Shown here: positions 584 to 8,663 of the stretch, piece by piece
Layout of the letters: each line of letters starts with the position of its first letter
Numbering within the stretch: position 1 is the stretch's first letter
IMG/VR virus record: IMGVR_UViG_2671180854_000003
Location: 1-8,663 of that record
Source of the DNA: a virus
Taxonomy: Duplodnaviria > Heunggongvirae > Uroviricota > Caudoviricetes
Length of the DNA: 8,663 bases
Reading direction: 5' to 3' (one strand)
Made by a program: the position numbers and the translations under genes
Notes under the pieces: model-generated
The model's input: the letters and a program-made list of their open reading frames with translations, nothing else
Told to the model about the DNA's origin: nothing
The model's database searches: none

Positions 584-1023
584 TATAAGAATCCGATTCT
601 AATTCAAAGCATTACCCCATCAACACTGCGCTCACACGTCCCGCCACATCAAAACATGTAAAGCCTTGCAAGCCATTGCGAGGCCTTATGTGTCTCAGTT
701 TTGTCCCACCTTGTATTACGACTTGCATAGCCAATGAAGATAAATGTGACGACAAACGGCGCAGCAGTCTTCTTTTCTTTCATACTTTCCCACACCCGGC
801 TTGCATACCTTTCTGCCATAACTATAGTGAATGTCTGTTATGAGAGAGAGACGGAAGTCCCCCACTTTATAAGTCAGTTAATGGAGAAATTACTAGCAGA
901 CGGTGTACTTGGAACAAGTTAATGGATTATAATGATAAATTAAGCATCGTTATGATTTGAAATACTTAATTATGCTAATATTGATGGAAGCAATGAATTT
1001 TAAGACATGCATAGAGTTATAAA

Positions 1024-3834
1024 ATGATAAATTTAAATCCACTTTCTTTTTCTGAATATGACTTGAACGAAATATTGAATGCCAGTCAAGATAATAAGTT
1101 AGTTCTTTTTATTGGTGCTGGTTTTTCTAAATTCAGCGAAACGGAATTAATAAAAATACCAACCTGGAGGGAGTTAATAAATGAGCTAAAAGACGACTTA
1201 GGATTGTCTGAAGAAAATGATTATTTAAAAATAGCCCAACTTTACTTTCTTCAATACGGACAAAACTCTTATGTTAAAAAAGTCAAATCAATAATTAGAG
1301 ATTTGAAACCAAGTTTTTTTCATAAGATGCTATTTGAATTAAACCCCCACTATATAATTACAACCAACTGGGATAGTTTGCTTGAAAAAACTGCACAAGA
1401 CATAGGATTGGCTTATGATTTAGTTAGTTCTGACGTGGACCTGGCACAAAGTCATTTGGACAAGAAAATTATAAAGATGCATGGGGATTTTCGACAGAAT
1501 AATTTTGTTTTTAAAGAGGATGATTACTTACAGTACAGCCAAAATTTTCCACTTATCGAAAATTTTATAAAAGGAATATTCTCAACAAACACTGTTGTGT
1601 TTTTAGGATACTCTTATAGTGATTATGATTTAAAACAGATTGTTTCATGGGTTACAACTATATCAAAAGCAACACCAAGAAAATATTTGCTCCAGAAAAA
1701 TCATGATGCAGCCCAGGCTCTTTACTTAAGAAATCATGGGATATCCTTGTTGACACCGATGAATACTGACATTAGCTATCATGATCTTTATTCAAAATTT
1801 TTCAGTGATTTCAAGCTTGTTAAAAACCAAGATGAGTTTATAAAGAGGACCCTGATCTATACTGAGTCAAAGGTAAAAAAAATAGAAGATGACCTGAGAA
1901 TGTCTGATTTTGATAAAAATAAATTGAAGAATGATATTCAATGTATTGTAACAAAAAAAATAAATAAATATGTTGATAGCAAACTAAAAGCATTAACACA
2001 ATACAAAGTATTGCTCCCTGAGCAGATCAGTAAAAAATTAACTAATAGTACCATTGATTATGATAAGTCTGGGGTTAAACTAACCTCCCACAATAATATT
2101 TTGACGACTGATTATGACGAGTATAGCAGGAAAATAAATAGCATATACCTTAATGACATTTTGAGTAAAAATACTCACTTAAAAAAGACATTCTCATCTA
2201 TTTTGGAAAAGGCATTTATAAATACAGTTAGTTATGACTCGAAACTGTATGAGGTGATTAGTTCTTCAGAATTAGAGTCTGAGCTATACAATAAGATTTC
2301 TTTCGCTTATTCAAAGGATAATGCTGAAATACTTCTTATTAACAAGGAATATGGCAAACTTCTCGATATTCTTATTTCGAAAGTAAAGCTTCATCTTAAT
2401 GAGAGAAACTATATTCTCGCCACCATTCACATGTCTAATTTTGATTATGCTTACAGGATGTTGAAGTCGGATTTACACTGTAACGGTAAGGACATTGATG
2501 AAGATTGTAAATCAATAATGGAAAGCCATACTCCATTTGAGTTTAAAAGTAAAACAATTGATTTTCCACGGGGGGTGCAAAGTGAGCTACAAGAATTAGT
2601 AAAGATGCTTGAATTTAATGAAATATACAAAGCTTACTATCGATTTGACGTTGAATCGAAGAAGAATTTAGGGTACTCACAAATAAGAAAGAGTGGTGGA
2701 ATAGCATTTTCCAATGATGAATTTAAAACAAGAGCGAAACTGTACCCTTATGTGTATTTCATTTTAGGCAACGAAATTTTAATTGAAGAATATAAAGAGG
2801 TTAAACAATTTTTCGAATTTAATATTCTTAGTAGCCTCGAACACTATCTATGCGAAGAGATATTCTATGTTAATAGAATCGATCTATTTATGTTAATAAA
2901 ATACTGCGAGACAGAAAAACTCAAAAAATTTTTAAGTAAGGTAATAAAAGACAAAATAATAATCAGCACCAGCAAACTTGACAAAAGAGAAGTTCACCAT
3001 ATTAAGAAATATTTACTCAACTCTCTCGAAAACATATGCAACCTGATTAGGTTGAAAAATAAAAATTTTATTCATACCACTTCAATAGATCGATGGACCA
3101 ATAATTTATTGATTATATTAGGATGTGTTCCGTGGAGTTCAAACCAGTTAAAGAAAATAATAAATGGTTTGCTTCCTTTGTTAGAAGGCAGAACTAATAA
3201 CATAAATATTTATGAAAACATACATAATCTTCTAGCTGTGAATGAGTTTTTGTATCAAAAATCCCATGATGATATGTTAAAAATCCTGGATGTAATACTT
3301 ATAAAAATCAATACAGGAGAGTTAAATGGTTATGACCAGCATGTAATTAACTCCAATATCTTACGAAACATTTACATATTATCAGAGAATCATAATTACG
3401 AATACAAAAACACTGAACTATTAACATTAGCGTTAACAAAAATACAATTATTTGATGATAAGTGGAAAAGATCCATCACTAAGAGTTTATTATTGAACAT
3501 CAAAAGGATTGGCTCTCCTGAGGTCGTTGACATTATAGACAAGTTTATTAACAGTAATATTTTAAACCTACCACTGGCAACAGTAAGCGATATTATGGAA
3601 TGTTTGCATTTAGTCGCAAGCGGATGTGCCATGCCTGATCAATTTCTTGAGGTTATTAACAAATTTGTTTCTGAAAACATCCCGAATAAATTAGGCGAGT
3701 TAGATTTCATTACAGCTGGTGTAGAAAGTGATTTTCCTAACTTAATTAAAAGCCTTATAAAGGATAGAGGCTTTGTTGAATTTCAAGACACATTGGACAT
3801 ATTCAATGAACGAATGCAATCTCTAAAAAAATAA
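1024..3834 (+). CDS. SIR2-like (sirtuin/NADase-type) domain protein, 936 aa: N-terminal SIR2_2-like domain (~aa 1-300) plus ~630-aa C-terminal region of unknown function; candidate single-gene anti-phage defence protein (DSR-like architecture)
   Basis: Long uninterrupted ORF; N-terminal motifs LVLFIGAGFS (aa 26-35), ITTNWD (Asn115, nt 1366-1368), KMHGD (His153, nt 1480-1482), VVFLGYSYSD match the layout of SIR2-type NAD-binding/catalytic motifs in ThsA/DSR-type defence proteins; no Walker A P-loop seen; gene is far more AT-rich (~25-33% GC on sampled lines) than flanks (~50-55%). Confidence 0.8.
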   Translation: MINLNPLSFSEYDLNEILNASQDNKLVLFIGAGFSKFSETELIKIPTWRELINELKDDLGLSEENDYLKIAQLYFLQYGQNSYVKKVKSIIRDLKPSFFHKMLFELNPHYIITTNWDSLLEKTAQDIGLAYDLVSSDVDLAQSHLDKKIIKMHGDFRQNNFVFKEDDYLQYSQNFPLIENFIKGIFSTNTVVFLGYSYSDYDLKQIVSWVTTISKATPRKYLLQKNHDAAQALYLRNHGISLLTPMNTDISYHDLYSKFFSDFKLVKNQDEFIKRTLIYTESKVKKIEDDLRMSDFDKNKLKNDIQCIVTKKINKYVDSKLKALTQYKVLLPEQISKKLTNSTIDYDKSGVKLTSHNNILTTDYDEYSRKINSIYLNDILSKNTHLKKTFSSILEKAFINTVSYDSKLYEVISSSELESELYNKISFAYSKDNAEILLINKEYGKLLDILISKVKLHLNERNYILATIHMSNFDYAYRMLKSDLHCNGKDIDEDCKSIMESHTPFEFKSKTIDFPRGVQSELQELVKMLEFNEIYKAYYRFDVESKKNLGYSQIRKSGGIAFSNDEFKTRAKLYPYVYFILGNEILIEEYKEVKQFFEFNILSSLEHYLCEEIFYVNRIDLFMLIKYCETEKLKKFLSKVIKDKIIISTSKLDKREVHHIKKYLLNSLENICNLIRLKNKNFIHTTSIDRWTNNLLIILGCVPWSSNQLKKIINGLLPLLEGRTNNINIYENIHNLLAVNEFLYQKSHDDMLKILDVILIKINTGELNGYDQHVINSNILRNIYILSENHNYEYKNTELLTLALTKIQLFDDKWKRSITKSLLLNIKRIGSPEVVDIIDKFINSNILNLPLATVSDIMECLHLVASGCAMPDQFLEVINKFVSENIPNKLGELDFITAGVESDFPNLIKSLIKDRGFVEFQDTLDIFNERMQSLKK

Positions 3835-3845
3835 AGCCACTGAGA

Positions 3846-3892
3846 TAGGGCTGCTCTCTGTCAATTACCGCTCTTGGCACATAGCAGCCCTA
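3846..3892. repeat. Perfect 10-bp inverted repeat (TAGGGCTGCT ... AGCAGCCCTA) with 27-nt spacer, in the gap between the convergent SIR2 gene and pin
   Basis: Read directly: 3846-3855 is the reverse complement of 3883-3892. Confidence 0.6.
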
Positions 3893-4054
3893 GAAATGGT
3901 GACGTATAGTCATAGATGGTCGGTGACAGGAGATGCAAATCATCTCATACAAAAATACGTAAAATCAATAACGGCTAGAAATTATTCAACACTCGCACTA
4001 TCGACATTTCACCAGCTAACCGTAGCACGTTCTTGCATACGACGTGCTACGGTT

Positions 4055-4609
4055 TCATTTATCTCCAACCGGAAACTTCTTATACAGTGTCGATATACCA
4101 ACATCATAGATGATCGCCACCTTCTGGCGAGGAACGCCTGATGCAATTAATCGCCCGGCCTGCGCCCATTGTTCTGGTGTAAGTTTGGGACGACGTCCCC
4201 CAATTCGTCCCTGTGCGCGAGCAGCTTCCAGTCCAGCTTTTGTTCGTTCAACAATCAGTTCTCGTTCCATTTCAGCCAGGGCACCCATCACATGAAAGAA
4301 AAAACGCCCCATCGGTGTGCTGGTATCAATAGCATCCGTCAGGCTGCGAAAATTAACGCCACGTTCGCGCAACTCCTCAACCAGAATGACCAGATGCCGC
4401 ATACTACGCCCCAGCCGATCCAGTTTCCAGACCACCAGAGTGTCACCTGCCGATAATGTCCTGAGCAGTTTTTTCAGTCCCGGTCTTTCGGACTTCGTAC
4501 CGCTTATCTTGTCTTCAAAAATCAGTTCACATCCTACACAGTTCAACGCATTACGTTGTAGATCGGTGTTCTGGTCATTTGTTGATACGCGAACATAGCC
4601 AATAAGCAT
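4055..4609 (-). CDS. pin: Serine-recombinase DNA invertase, Pin/Gin/Hin/Cin family (184 aa from ATG at 4609)
   Basis: Translation MLIGYVRVSTNDQNTDLQRNAL...VVWKLDRLGRSM...GRIGGRRPKL is near-identical in pattern to Pin/Gin invertases (catalytic Ser in YVRVST motif, C-terminal HTH); the ORF-track start at 4645 adds a 12-aa extension that homologues lack. Confidence 0.9.
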   Translation of the reverse strand: MLIGYVRVSTNDQNTDLQRNALNCVGCELIFEDKISGTKSERPGLKKLLRTLSAGDTLVVWKLDRLGRSMRHLVILVEELRERGVNFRSLTDAIDTSTPMGRFFFHVMGALAEMERELIVERTKAGLEAARAQGRIGGRRPKLTPEQWAQAGRLIASGVPRQKVAIIYDVGISTLYKKFPVGDK

Positions 4610-4635: not shown

Positions 4636-4971
4636 ATGATGCCATTTGCTCGTTATTTCTGCATTTTCATAAACCTTGGTTTTGGAGAAGGTGCTAACTG
4701 GGTTATGTTACCTGGAGGAATGATAATTCAGCGTGTTTATCTTGGATTTCCTGTCGGCACCAATGTAAGACACATAACTTTCCCCCGGTCGTTTACAACA
4801 ACGAACTATTCCATCTCAATTAACTGGAATGATATCGGTACTGTAACAACTGAAACACAATCGCCAGCAAATGTGGCGGTTGTTCATCAAACAAAATCAT
4901 TAACAGGGGCCAGCATCTGGCAGGCAGGTCCCGGGGGATTTAATGTGGACATTATAGCGGTGGGGTATTGA
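4636..4971 (+). CDS. Alternative tail-fibre C-terminal cassette (Sv'-type), currently in the silent orientation; would be fused to the constant stf 5' part after inversion
   Basis: ORF encodes NLGFGEGA across the crossover site, mirroring ENLGLGEGA at the second site inside stf; followed directly by a tfa gene; the ATG at 4636 lies outside the invertible segment and is probably not a real start. Confidence 0.5.
   Translation: MMPFARYFCIFINLGFGEGANWVMLPGGMIIQRVYLGFPVGTNVRHITFPRSFTTTNYSISINWNDIGTVTTETQSPANVAVVHQTKSLTGASIWQAGPGGFNVDIIAVGY
4664..4689. other. Invertase crossover site (gix/hix-like), invertase-proximal: TTTTCATAAACCTTGGTTTTGGAGAA
   Basis: Quasi-palindromic 26-mer with AAACC-NN-GGTTT core resembling Hin/Gin recombination sites; lies ~55 bp upstream of the pin start. 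Confidence 0.7.
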
Positions 4972-4972
4972 T

Positions 4973-5401
4973 ATGTACGTATGGAGCGCTAAAGCAAATG
5001 GCTTTTTCCCCATATCGGAGAAAGAAAAATTTGAGGCATCAGGTCTGTGGCCTGATGATGGTGTAATAGTCAGTGAGGAAGAACATAAGAAGTTATTTAT
5101 GGATATTCCACCAGGAAAACAGATTGGAACACTGAATGGAAAACCAGCACTGATAGATATTCCTCAGCCGACCAAAAAGGAATTAATAGCTATTGCTGAA
5201 GTTAAAAAATCCCAATTACGGGAAAAAGCTGACAGTGAAATATCCTGGCGTCAGGATGCTGTTGATGCTGATATCGCAACTGATGAAGAAGCTACAACTC
5301 TCACCCAATGGAAGAAATACCGTGTGCTGCTGATGCGTGTTGATACGTCAACAGCACCCGATATTGAATGGCCTACGCCTCCGGCAGTTCAGGCCAGATG
5401 A
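4973..5401 (+). CDS. Tail fibre assembly protein (Tfa/Mu U-like), partner of the alternative cassette
   Basis: 142-aa ORF with C-terminal motif KKYRVLLMRVDTSTAPDIEWPTPP typical of phage tail-fibre assembly chaperones. Confidence 0.8.
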   Translation: MYVWSAKANGFFPISEKEKFEASGLWPDDGVIVSEEEHKKLFMDIPPGKQIGTLNGKPALIDIPQPTKKELIAIAEVKKSQLREKADSEISWRQDAVDADIATDEEATTLTQWKKYRVLLMRVDTSTAPDIEWPTPPAVQAR

Positions 5402-5966
5402 TATCCGGCGCGGTGCTGGTATCTGTTGCCGTCACCGCGTCAATGTAATCCAGCACGGCGTTAAGTCGGGTTGTTTCTGCCTGAGTCAGTTTCCGTCCGG
5501 CCTGTAATTTCAGCTGAATCAGACTAATGGAAGCCATTGCTGCATCAATCAGTGACTGGCGCTGTGCTTCTGCCGCGTCTACTGCGGCACTGTGTTGTGC
5601 CTCAGTGTCTGTCACCCATTTCTCACCATCCCATTTATCGTATGGCGTTAACGGTGAAATCGTGACATAACCGTCTTTGATGGCACCGATATAATCCACT
5701 GTAACAGCTGCGCCATTTTCGATTGAGTAAACAGTCTCATTGCGATGGTCTTCTTCATGGCGCCATCCCTTACCTGTAAATACTGCCACTCTTCCCGGAA
5801 TGTTTTCGCCAGGGTCAATACCAGTGGAACAGGCGGGCATACTTACGCCAGTATTAATATATTCATCAGACCAGCCCGTATACTCAGATGTTTCAGCATC
5901 ATAATAAAAACAACGCATATCGCCCGGCACTGTAGCCAGCCCATTTTCATCAAAAACAGGTTTCAT
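5373..5966 (-). CDS. Tail fibre assembly protein (Tfa/Mu U-like), partner of the currently expressed tail-fibre variant
   Basis: 197-aa ORF with C-terminal motif DTSTAPDIIWPELPEA; start overlaps stf stop (TAATG at 5964-5968). Confidence 0.85.
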   Translation of the reverse strand: MKPVFDENGLATVPGDMRCFYYDAETSEYTGWSDEYINTGVSMPACSTGIDPGENIPGRVAVFTGKGWRHEEDHRNETVYSIENGAAVTVDYIGAIKDGYVTISPLTPYDKWDGEKWVTDTEAQHSAAVDAAEAQRQSLIDAAMASISLIQLKLQAGRKLTQAETTRLNAVLDYIDAVTATDTSTAPDIIWPELPEA

Positions 5967-6712
5967 TATTTAGCCCTCACCAGAAAGTTAAATGCAATAT
6001 TTCGCGGTCTGACAGCAACAAAATTCACACCATCACCCACAGAGTTACTGGTGAAATTAAATCGTGAAAATCCTGGCTGATTTCCGGCGATGCCATCATG
6101 AAAGTTAATTGCGTGTCCCGCACCTTCGCCTATATTCCCGGCAAACTGAGAAAAGTTTGTAGCTGCCTGCCAGCTTAATAATTCGCGACCACCGTCTGCA
6201 CCTCGCCCGTCATCCCAGATACGAATGAAATCACCGCGGGCTTCAGGTAATACCAGCGAAGGAAACACTTTCGCCAGCACAGGATAATCAGTGGCAGAGA
6301 ATTTCGCGCCGTTGAACTTCAAAAACACCATACTGGACCAGCTGTCGATTACAGTATTTGGCATTGCAGCGGACGGCCAGAAGAACGGAACGCCAATAGC
6401 TGGAGCACCTTCTCCCAAACCAAGGTTTTCGAGAGCTGTTTTCACCGTGCCATCCGATTTGATATCGCCAAACGGATTCTTGCGGCTTAACAGCAGCGCA
6501 CGAAGCGCGGTAAGCAGCTGGTCGTGCCTCTCCTTCTCCAGGCTGGCACCGGATGCCTCCACCACGCTACAAAGCTCTTCCTGCAACATGTCAAAGTAGT
6601 CATCATCCAGATCGGTGGCAGGCGTGCCGGTCTGGGGGTTGCCACGGGTAAAACCGTTCTTACCCGCGCCGAACTTATCCTTCTGCGCGGTTTTCGTGTC
6701 TATGCGATGCAT
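5966..6712 (-). CDS. Short side tail fibre protein (248 aa): constant N-terminal part (outside the invertible segment) fused to variable C-terminal part (inside it)
   Basis: N-terminus [20 protein letters not shown]... and glycine-rich body typical of e14/Mu-type tail fibres; crossover site lies inside the ORF at aa ~93-101; followed by a translationally coupled tfa. Confidence 0.85.
6410..6435. other. Invertase crossover site (gix/hix-like), distal, inside stf: TTCTCCCAAACCAAGGTTTTCGAGAG
   Basis: Its reverse complement matches the 4664-4689 site at 21 of 26 positions; central dinucleotide AA versus TT shows the two sites are in inverted orientation. Confidence 0.7.
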
Positions 6713-6715
6713 GGA

Positions 6716-7300
6716 TTACTCCGGATATTTAAAAATTACGTAGGTATGAGACGGACAGAGTTTGTTAAGCACACATTCGACAACGGTATCGCCCCAGATA
6801 CGCAGTGCGGAATCACAGGGATCGCCACATGTCATCCAGGTGGTGTTTGTGGCGGCTGGCATGTTGACCTGCCAGTAATACCGCCATTCCGGCGCATTCA
6901 CCGCGTCAGTACAGGCCGATGAGCAGGTGAACGTGCTTTTGTCGTATCGCGTGATGGTAGCGTCTGGTCTGCCCAGGGCAGCAAGCTGTGCAAGATAAAA
7001 ATTCTCGTTGATGCCGCCCGCCAGGTTAACCTTCGCATCCAGCCGTTGCTGACGCTGGCGAAGGGTCTGTGTCCCTGCGGGAATACATTCATCCGGCAGA
7101 CCGCACAGACGCTCCCAGCGGTTTATCAGTTCGGTGGTGGTGCGCGGATCCAGCTCCCGCATCAGGGCATCCGCACGCTGATGAACGCGGGTTAATGACG
7201 GTGCCGCACCGGCAATCGACGGATCGCTGGCTGACCACGCCGGACCGGGGGGCAACAGTGCCGACAACAGACGGATGTAATCATCGTTTGTCACGTCCAT
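6716..7300 (-). CDS. ymfQ: Phage tail/baseplate protein, YmfQ/DUF2313 family (Mu gp48 / P2 gpI-like position), 194 aa
   Basis: 194-aa ORF immediately upstream of stf with a 3-nt gap (translational coupling); sequence beginning [22 protein letters not shown] recalls the e14 YmfQ family (from memory). Confidence 0.7.
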
Positions 7301-7449
7301 GAAATCGTCCCCAGTACCGCCAGTTCATTTTTTGCAATGGAGATATTGTCTGCCGGTGCAAGCAACTGATGGCTGTATTCCCCGTTCGCACCGGAAATCG
7401 CCTCACTGATACGCGATACCTTCAGTTCTCCCTGCGGATATGGGCAGCT
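7291..7449 (-). pseudogene. Probable 3' remnant (~52 codons) of a baseplate-J-like tail gene, truncated at its 5' side
   Basis: Open frame on the minus strand from the Rz stop down to a TGA at 7291-7293 that overlaps the ymfQ start by 8 nt (typical tail-operon overlap); no start codon or 5' part present; identity as J-like is inferred from gene order only. Confidence 0.3.
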
Positions 7450-7911
7450 CTATCTGCACTGCTCATTAATATACTTCTGGGTTCCTTCCAGTTGTTTTTG
7501 CATAGTGATCAGCCTCTCTCTGAGGGTGAAATAATCCCGTTCAGCGGTGTCTGCCAGTCGGGGGGAGGCTGCATTATCCACGCCGGAGGCGGTGGTGGCT
7601 TCACGCACTGACTGACAGACTGCTTTGATGTGCAACCGACGACGACCAGCGGCAACATCATCACGCAGAGCATCATTTTCAGCTTTCGCATCAGCTAACT
7701 CCTTCGTGTATTTTGCATCGAGCGCAGCAACATCACGCTGACGCATCTGCATGTCAGTAATTGCCGCGTTCGCCAGCTTCAGTTCTTTGGCATTTTTGTC
7801 GCGCTGGGCTTTATAGGTAATGGCGTTATCACGGTAATGATTAACAGCCCATGACAGGCAGACGATGATGCAGATAACCAGAGCGGAGATAATCGCGGTT
7901 ACTCTGTTCAT
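7450..7911 (-). CDS. Rz: Rz-type i-spanin (153 aa from ATG at 7911)
   Basis: Translation [41 protein letters not shown]... closely matches lambda Rz as I recall it; start overlaps the endolysin stop (ATGA). Confidence 0.9.
7509..7691 (-). CDS. Rz1: Rz1-type o-spanin lipoprotein (60 aa), embedded in the +1 frame inside Rz
   Basis: Translation [26 protein letters not shown]...PPPPPAW... with lipobox (VVGC) and proline-rich region, as in lambda Rz1. Confidence 0.85.
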
Positions 7912-8405
7912 TGCTGACCCCACAAACAGATTTCACGCTCAATCTCACGACGAGTCATGAGACCTTTCCATTGCTTACCGCCAGCATATGTCCAGCGACG
8001 TAACTGATCACATGCGCCTTTGATATCGCCCTGGTTTATTTTGCGAAGAAGCGTCGATGTTCTGAAATTGCCAGCACCCACGTTGTAAACGAATGAGTAA
8101 AGAGCGCCGCGCGTTGTTTCCGGTATATCGACTTCGATGTATGGGTTAATTTGTCTGGCGACAGTGGCAAGGTCTTTATTCAAGAGTGCTTTGCATTCTG
8201 CTTTGGTATACGTTTTACCGAGCATGATGTCTTTTCCTGTATGCCCGTGACATACGGTCCATACACCAACAATATCTTTGTATGGTATGTAGCTGACACC
8301 TTCCAGACCATCGTTACCACTTGGGCCAGTGATTAACACTGATGCTATAGCAATTGCTCCGCCACCAATAGCAGCAGCAACGGCTTTTCGTAATGATGGA
8401 GGCAT
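7908..8405 (-). CDS. SAR-type endolysin (phage lysozyme, P21 R / DLP12 RrrD-like), 165 aa
   Basis: N-terminal signal-anchor-release segment [30 protein letters not shown] followed by lysozyme body; near-identical to P21-type endolysins from memory; start overlaps holin stop (TAATG). Confidence 0.9.
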
Positions 8406-8540
8406 TATTCACCTCTCGCAGCCTTGCGCTTATCTTCTTTAATCTTGAAATAAAGGTTTGTCAGGTACGTCAGCAGGCCAAATACCAGGCTACCCAGCAC
8501 ACCTATTGCTGCCCACTGTGAGGGCGTGACTTTATCGAGC
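8405..8540 (-). pseudogene. Pinholin (S21/EssD-like) 3' remnant; N-terminal ~25 codons replaced by an IS insertion
   Basis: Minus-strand translation ...[44 protein letters not shown] matches the C-terminal two-thirds of P21-type pinholins; similarity ends abruptly at ~8540 where an IS terminal sequence begins. Confidence 0.75.
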
Positions 8541-8663
8541 TGAACCGCCCCGGGAATCCTGGAGACTAAACTTCCTGAGAAAGAGGTAAACAGGATGACT
8601 AAAAATACTCGTTTTTCCCCCGAAGTCCGTCAACGGGCAGTCCGTATGGTTCTGGAAAGTCAG
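8541..8663 (+). mobile_element. Left end of an IS3-family insertion sequence (IS629/IS1203-like), continuing beyond the window
   Basis: Terminal sequence TGAACCGCCCCGGG... starts exactly where holin similarity stops; transposase OrfA start follows 54 bp downstream. Confidence 0.7.
8595..8663 (+). CDS. IS3-family transposase OrfA, N-terminal 23 codons (partial, runs off window)
   Basis: Translation [23 protein letters not shown] matches the N-terminus of IS629/IS1203-type OrfA as I recall it; AGGTAAACAGG Shine-Dalgarno-like sequence upstream. Confidence 0.75.

Follow-up and report, generated by a model that had tools for sequence, protein, structure and literature searches.

Why does a phage lysis cassette stand directly upstream of a tail-fibre module in this stretch of DNA? 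The window, by which we mean the whole stretch of 8,663 nt that was analysed, corresponds exactly to the last 8,663 nt of the draft contig CXZD01000007.1 (assembly GCA_001277455.1). The source contig stops inside an IS element, 1.2 kb past the junction between the two modules. A sequence-only reading had proposed that the junction was formed by a deletion and that the element is the defective remnant of a prophage. In this study, we determined the chromosomal site and the gene content of the element, the exact position of the junction, and the interval that separates the two modules in intact relatives. Other ways in which the junction could have formed were weighed against the same evidence.

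Results

The end of paoD occupies positions 1-22 of the window and flanks the prophage. It is followed by a LysR-type pseudogene (LysR', 73-411), and the same arrangement is present in UMNK88 and G4/9. The prophage end (att) adjoins the LysR' pseudogene and paoD and consists of a copy of the 3' part of thrW (tRNA-Thr) with adjacent bases at 520-583. This copy gave a 64-nt match, 93.75% identical, to positions 38419-38482 of the G1/2 prophage (locus L017), which overlap an annotated tRNA-Thr (38437-38512) beside the integrase. A tRNA search of the 8,663 nt of the window found no complete tRNA. One chromosomal site is thus occupied in UMNK88, G4/9, and G1/2, with paoD and LysR' on one side; on the other side, in G1/2, lies the tRNA-Thr with proA. 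Integration at thrW has been reported for the Shigella phages SfI and SfV, which share the e14-type morphogenesis module and lambdoid early genes (PMC3636060). On the basis of the tRNA-Thr copy and its neighbours, we assign the window to the cargo-proximal end of an SfV/SfI/e14-type prophage at thrW, next to paoD. Prophages of this type combine lambdoid early and lysis genes with a head resembling that of HK97 and a contractile tail resembling that of Mu.

All genes around the junction are on the minus strand. In the order of transcription they are R, Rz with Rz1 embedded in it, an open frame without a start codon, ymfQ, a tail-fibre gene, tfa, an inverted second tfa with an alternative fibre end, and pin. 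The endolysin gene R (7908-8405, minus strand) encodes an intact RrrD-type protein of 165 aa (Pfam Phage_lysozyme, E = 2.8e-45) and is named rrrD in matching records. The i-spanin gene Rz (7450-7911, minus strand) is of the RzpD type and is also intact, with 153 aa from its ATG (Pfam Phage_lysis, E = 2.8e-54). The ORF listing extends the start of this frame to a GTG at 7923; the source contig annotation gives 153 aa. The o-spanin lipoprotein gene Rz1, which lies inside Rz (7509-7691, minus strand), is intact as well (Pfam Rz1, E = 2.9e-20). For the holin gene essD, however, only the 3' part remains (8405-8540, minus strand; 136 of 216 nt), and the matches to the loci L003 and L017 stop at 8540 inside essD. 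The left end of an IS3-family element (IS1203/IS629-like) occupies 8541-8663 on the plus strand, with the terminal repeat TGAACCGCCCCGGG and the start of orfA, and matching records are annotated as IS3-like or IS1203 family transposase. The insertion has severed the 5' part of essD together with its start codon. The lysis cassette had been described as kept. This holds for R, Rz, and Rz1 but not for the holin, which is cut at 8540/8541, and the cassette as it stands is predicted to be non-functional.

On the other side of the junction, ymfQ (6716-7300, minus strand) is intact and encodes a Mu Gp48-like baseplate/tail-fibre-proximal protein of 194 aa (Pfam Phage_Mu_Gp48, E = 1.4e-26). The exact YmfQ protein is widespread, being found in 4,272 blocks of the searched collection. 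The adjacent tail-fibre ORF (5966-6712, minus strand) has 248 aa and its 3' part lies inside an invertible segment; the exact protein adjoins ymfQ in intact prophages. It is followed by the tfa ORF (5373-5966, minus strand). The invertible tail-fibre segment (4671-6428) carries two tfa genes together with an alternative C-terminus for the fibre. It is bounded by pix-like crossover sites at 4671-4689 (minus strand) and 6410-6428 (plus strand), and its ends form a 25-nt inverted repeat that is 96% complementary. The serine DNA invertase gene pin (4055-4609, minus strand), named pinE in relatives, encodes 184 aa as in the source contig (Pfam Resolvase and HTH_7). Between pin and the prophage end, a SIR2-family cargo gene (1024-3834, plus strand) encodes a putative defence protein of 936 aa (Pfam SIR2_2, E = 3.4e-24). 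PADLOC matched its protein to the ThsA-type SIR2 domain over residues 15-230 only.

The open frame between Rz and ymfQ had been taken for the 3' end of a J-like tail gene that lacks its 5' part. On the minus strand, the translation of 7455-7291 reads R, the Rz stop codon, SCPYPQGELKV...GTISWT, and a TGA stop codon at 7291-7293. Exactly 52 sense codons therefore follow the Rz stop (7450-7452) in frame, where about 52 had been counted. Open runs of at least 52 codons make up 5% of the inter-stop runs in the six frames of the window. Since the length of the run is thus unremarkable by itself, the identity of the frame was settled by homology. Window positions 7200-7440 are 100% identical at the nucleotide level (E = 6e-119) to sequences in many E. 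coli prophages that comprise the 3' end of J/gp47 and the beginning of ymfQ. Direct comparison with a baseplate J protein showed that 49 of 49 residues agree with positions 304-352 of J from E. coli G1/2, a protein of 352 residues that itself matches Pfam Baseplate_J over residues 69-317 (E = 6.5e-53). A Pfam scan of the 52-residue fragment alone gave no match because only 14 of its residues fall inside the Baseplate_J profile. These results demonstrate that the last 49 codons and the TGA are a remnant of the baseplate gene J/gp47 (7291-7440, minus strand; 150 of 1,059 nt retained). The first three codons do not belong to J but to the native 3' flank of Rz.

The J remnant overlaps ymfQ, whose ATG is at 7300-7298, by ATGGACGTGA. 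The overlap had been given as 8 nt; it is 10 nt when the stop codon is included and 7 nt when it is not, and the same 10-nt overlap of J and ymfQ is also present in intact relatives. The remnant has no in-frame start codon able to give a product. With the Rz stop codon intact and no usable start in the J remnant, a fusion protein does not arise. The frame that Rz and the J remnant share is a 1-in-3 coincidence and has no consequence, as the TAG stop is intact. Between Rz and ymfQ, the minus strand showed neither a terminator nor a promoter gained or lost through the junction.

The junction was mapped by aligning the window with the J parent (L001, L002, and L003) and with the Rz parent (L003). 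The window tracks J as far as ...CCCTGCGGATA and tracks the Rz flank from GATATGGGCAGC... on. GATA, at 7437-7440, is the only stretch common to both parents, the flanking positions being essentially unmatched, and the BLAST segments overlap there. A deletion junction had been placed at the Rz stop codon. The window does switch from one parent to the other, but the breakpoint lies 10-13 nt downstream of the stop. The 9 nt at 7441-7449 (minus strand) are identical to the sequence downstream of rzpD in L003 and L017. They encode the codons S, C, and P and, in intact phages, lead to iss/bor. The J-derived codons begin at Tyr304. From the junction to 8450, the window (7437-8450) is 99.9% identical to a region annotated as rzpD/rrrD/essD in lambdoid prophages. 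At the join itself, exactly 4 nt are shared without longer homology, and neither an IS end nor a pix-like site within three mismatches is present.

We searched for the same junction in other records. None of 5,426 complete E. coli genomes contained a junction-spanning sequence, and none was found in the phage or plasmid collections. An exact 37-mer across the junction had no match in species-representative genomes, metagenomes, or viral contigs, and look-ups with the YmfQ and Stf proteins returned the junction only on the source NCBI contig. For the same strain, the Logan contig of ERR124655 reaches no further than SIR2 and pin.

The content of the missing interval was determined from intact relatives. 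G1/2 carries an apparently complete prophage (NZ_CP060083.1, 4.035-4.073 Mb) between the tRNA-Thr (thrW, beside proA) and the end with pin and the cargo gene. Its first half is ordered as integrase, lambdoid early genes, quuD, essD-rrrD-rzpD, iss, HNH, terS, terL, ymfR, portal, protease, capsid, and connectors. The second half continues with sheath, tube, tape measure, the DNA-circularisation protein, baseplate P, V, and gp46, J, ymfQ, fibre, tfa, pinE, and the cargo gene. Both flanks of the junction map onto this late region. Window positions 6409-7440 correspond to L017 3410-4441, on the same strand and in the same order as the segment on the Rz side, in which window positions 7437-8540 correspond to L017 21956-23059 with 99.909% identity. 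The endpoints are thereby mapped to collinear flanks 17,518 bp apart in G1/2, where L017 4442-21959 is the part that the window lacks. This part comprises 22 complete annotated genes, from iss/HNH/terminase through baseplate gp46, together with 909 of the 1,059 nt of J (86%).

The same genes separate the two modules elsewhere. In UMNK88, F9792, and G1/2, the HNH, terS, terL, portal, protease, capsid, sheath, tube, tape measure, and baseplate genes lie between Rz and ymfQ. In nine of the ten listed places that encode the identical YmfQ, the full 352-residue J is directly upstream, and J is upstream of the identical fibre protein in all carrying contigs except the source contig. None of the intact relatives compared has Rz natively next to ymfQ. 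These results agree with the sequence-only reading that packaging, head, and tail genes separate the modules in intact phages, and that the head, packaging, and most tail genes are missing here.

Discussion

We propose that the junction arose by a single internal deletion of 17,518 bp in one thrW prophage through GATA-mediated illegitimate recombination, a reading to which we give a probability of about 85%. This study observed directly what the two flanks are, that they are collinear, how large the deleted interval is and which genes it contained, and that the join carries a microhomology. One illegitimate recombination event inside one prophage would have joined the 3' flank of Rz to codon 304 of J. 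It would have removed iss/bor, HNH, terS, terL, ymfR, the portal, protease, and capsid genes, the head-tail connectors, the sheath, the tube, and the tape measure. The genes for the DNA-circularisation protein and baseplate P, V, and gp46 would have been lost with them, as would 86% of J. The resulting scar would have no function of its own, and the element would no longer be able to build virions. The holin gene has additionally been broken by the insertion of the IS3-family element, before or after the deletion. Illegitimate recombination in E. coli uses homologies of 1-10 nt. The event was probably independent of RecA and may have proceeded by end joining after a double-strand break, by slippage, or by an error of a topoisomerase such as gyrase. 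The ORFs that were retained all remain intact and closely match their counterparts in intact prophages, which suggests that the deletion is recent.

The same junction could have been produced by ectopic recombination between two prophages, a DLP12-type lambdoid prophage carrying essD-rrrD-rzpD and an e14/SfV-like prophage at thrW, with a deletion or rearrangement of the chromosome. The lysis cassette is a shared lambdoid module, and it is 99.9% identical in an intact lambda-type prophage at argU in RM14723. The contig also ends in an IS element, so that the far side of the lysis genes is unseen. However, thrW prophages with this lysis cassette, in the same orientation to ymfQ, are present at the same locus in G1/2 (99.9% identical) and in G4/9. 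Because such thrW prophages exist at the same locus, a simple collinear deletion explains everything. On the K-12 map, a join between argU and thrW would remove or invert about 300 kb of the chromosome, a cost that also speaks against this origin. A rearrangement between prophages is therefore less economical than an internal deletion, and we regard it as improbable.

A chimeric join, made by the assembler or carried by a read, could instead have created the junction from a prophage that is in fact intact. The source is a draft short-read assembly, and the junction was in no other record of any collection searched. Its sole source is this one assembly, whose entry reads '2 samples with this contig', and there is no independent replicate. 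However, the contig is recorded for two samples, and the structure is biologically typical, with the same kind of scar in G4/9, K-12 e14, and the locus L015. The parents have just 4 nt in common, far below the k-mer overlap of an assembler, and a mis-join in the assembly graph is implausible for this reason. We consider an artefact very unlikely.

The elements in the neighbourhood of the join offer two further routes, namely recombination by Pin on pseudo-pix sites and an adjacent deletion by the nearby IS3-family element. The sequence TTCTCCC, the outer 7 nt of a pix half-site, is present at 7426-7432, 5 nt from the join, and a 2-nt crossover core could fit within the shared GATA. However, within three mismatches the 19-nt crossover sequence matched only the two genuine pix sites in the window (4671-4689 and 6410-6428), against 0.01 expected by chance. 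The conserved inner AAACC/GGTTT is absent from both parents at the join. Invertase-mediated deletion on 26-bp sites with the core AAACC-NN-GGTTT was therefore rejected, the bases at the join being TGCGG/AACCA in the J parent and CATCG/ATGGG in the Rz parent. The IS element sits 1.1 kb from the join, but an adjacent deletion leaves an IS end at the junction, and here the IS end is at 8541, beyond intact Rz and R. As the junction joins phage DNA to phage DNA with no IS terminus abutting it, IS-mediated adjacent deletion was also rejected. Both routes seem hardly credible. A native arrangement, in which some phages of the group would naturally have Rz, a short ORF, and ymfQ in this order, had nothing in its favour and was ruled out, with next to no probability left to it, by the genome searches (0 of 5,426 complete E. 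coli genomes, and likewise no phage or plasmid record, span the junction), by the full-length J or another truncation of J upstream in relatives with identical YmfQ or Stf, and by the exact identity of the fragment with the 3' end of J.

The proposal that the element is a defective remnant is borne out by the missing structural genes. Genes essential for virion production are absent between Rz and ymfQ, and the holin gene is truncated by the IS element. Past the lysis genes, the relatives G4/9 and G1/2 have a full lambdoid early region; the source contig stops before that point. The sequence-only statement that the element kept only lysis, tail-fibre/invertase, and defence genes therefore goes further than this contig end allows. 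The scar matters little alone, being one more precisely mapped example of prophage decay, and its value is mainly for annotation. Appropriate labels are a defective thrW prophage for the element, a J pseudogene fragment and not a gene for the 52-codon frame, and, for SIR2, a cargo gene that occupies the variable slot beside pin.

We also considered whether the spared block of ymfQ, fibre, tfa, invertible segment, pin, and SIR2 might be a host-selected anti-phage module and not inert debris. If so, selection protecting the block would cause deletions to stop repeatedly just upstream of ymfQ. It has been reported that the inverted e14 P segment yields a fibre-like protein that blocks adsorption of T2 (PMC12529663). 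All four scars compared, those of the window, G4/9, K-12 e14, and L015, stop inside J and spare ymfQ. Of 60 records sampled across the 1,433 that matched, about three quarters retain the complete block from baseplate to ymfQ. The truncated copies in this sample are mostly K-12 laboratory derivatives and so represent one event, and the sample also shows endpoints inside ymfQ or beyond it, including loss of ymfQ. From these K-12-dominated truncations and the endpoints in and beyond ymfQ, neither selection nor a hotspot is established. A deletion hotspot in J was not accepted on the four J endpoints, since the sample is small and biased and other endpoints occur. Selection for the block therefore appears doubtful. 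Should a proper survey confirm that the block is spared by independent deletions, this would be relevant to how prophage remnants become domesticated as defence loci.

The closest intact counterparts of the element are the thrW prophages of the G1/2 type. They have the same site, a lysis cassette 99.9% identical to that of the window, and a matching placement of pin and the cargo slot. Over ymfQ and the 3' end of J, G1/2 is about 96% identical to the window, and its cargo is a GIY-YIG gene, whereas the window carries SIR2. Unlike the window, the intact thrW prophages and SfV/SfI still have the packaging, head, and tail genes of the 17.5-kb interval, and their holin gene is uninterrupted. The defective thrW prophage of G4/9 (NZ_CP060073.1) resembles the window in its locus, its lysis cassette, and a scar that ends inside J. 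In G4/9, however, terL' runs into the remaining 588 nt of J, the loss amounts to about 13.6 kb, and iss, HNH, and terS are kept.

The comparison with e14, a cryptic prophage of E. coli K-12, rests on the RefSeq annotation. Like the window, e14 has J', ymfQ, the tail fibre, tfa, the invertible segment, pin, and a defence cargo in the same order, its own order being the beeE'-jayE' junction followed by ymfQ-stfP-tfaP-tfaE-stfE-pinE-mcrA. Its internal deletion also has the distal end in J and leaves ymfQ intact. Unlike the window, e14 sits at icd and not at thrW, and its cargo is McrA in place of SIR2. In e14, a portal fragment (beeE) is joined to about 790 nt of J (jayE), with about 12.7 kb lost. 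A second deletion took the lysis genes of e14, whereas the window keeps R, Rz, and Rz1.

In the coordinates of the G1/2 late region, the window has lost 1185-18698, with an overlap of 4 nt at the join. The deletions in the other three elements span about 4649-18258 in G4/9 (overlap of about 6 nt), about 5324-18060 in K-12 e14 (about 4 nt), and about 10576-18165 in the e14 variant L015 (about 9 nt). The scars of the window, G4/9, K-12 e14, and L015 are independent events. The scar of the window is a strain-specific, precisely mapped instance of ordinary, well-known prophage decay, in an element of e14-like architecture.

Deletion Endpoints in the Prophage Family

The distal end lies inside the baseplate J gene, with the adjacent ymfQ spared, in each of four independent deletions mapped in this prophage family. 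The joins were located at 7437-7440 in the window, at 22391-22396 in L003 (the defective thrW prophage of E. coli G4/9), at 10136-10139 in L024 (K-12 e14), and at 5328-5336 in L015 (an e14 variant). The proximal ends of these deletions differ and fall in the Rz flank, terL, the portal, and the sheath region. Such a pattern would fit a deletion hotspot in J or selection sparing ymfQ. Both explanations are unproven, because a spread sample of genomes also contains endpoints within ymfQ or past it.

At 7426-7432, 5 nt from the deletion junction, the heptamer TTCTCCC matches exactly the outermost 7 nt of a half-site of pix, the crossover site of the Pin invertase. The window contains three copies of this heptamer, where 0.7 would be expected. 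As a recombination site it was rejected and taken as coincidence, since the rest of the crossover site is absent around 7426-7432.

Lysis Cassette, Prophage End, and Cargo Slot

At 8540/8541 the holin gene essD is broken off by an IS3-family element of the IS1203/IS629-like type, whose left end lies at this point (window 8405-8663), and the source contig terminates within this element. As only 136 of the 216 nt of essD remain, the lysis cassette is not intact.

The prophage end is marked at 520-583 by 64 nt that duplicate the 3' portion of tRNA-Thr (thrW) together with adjacent bases; it adjoins a LysR-type pseudogene and paoD. In K-12, CP4-6 sits at the corresponding position. Between this end and pin lies a variable cargo position (584-4054), which carries a SIR2-family gene in the window and in porcine ETEC strains. 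The same slot was located at 20412-24054 in L002 (a related E. coli prophage locus), at 15412-18473 in L003, at 1-1084 in L017 (the intact thrW prophage of E. coli G1/2), and downstream of pin in L006-L015. Its contents in relatives are GIY-YIG plus AraC, a RES NAD+ phosphorylase, a TrlF ATPase, an McrA-like HNH protein, DUF4145, and unknown proteins. The slot thus looks like a defence-gene hotspot.

The SIR2 protein has 936 residues (1024-3834), and PADLOC ThsA-type SIR2 models cover residues 15-230 only; no Pfam or PADLOC family matched the C-terminal ~700 residues. Only two contigs were found with the exact protein.

Invertible Tail-Fibre Segment

Two pix-like crossover sites, at 4671-4689 (- strand) and 6410-6428 (+ strand), flank a 1.76-kb invertible tail-fibre segment (4671-6428). 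This segment is the counterpart of the e14 P segment, whose inversion was reported in 2025 to yield a protein that blocks T2 adsorption (PMC12529663).
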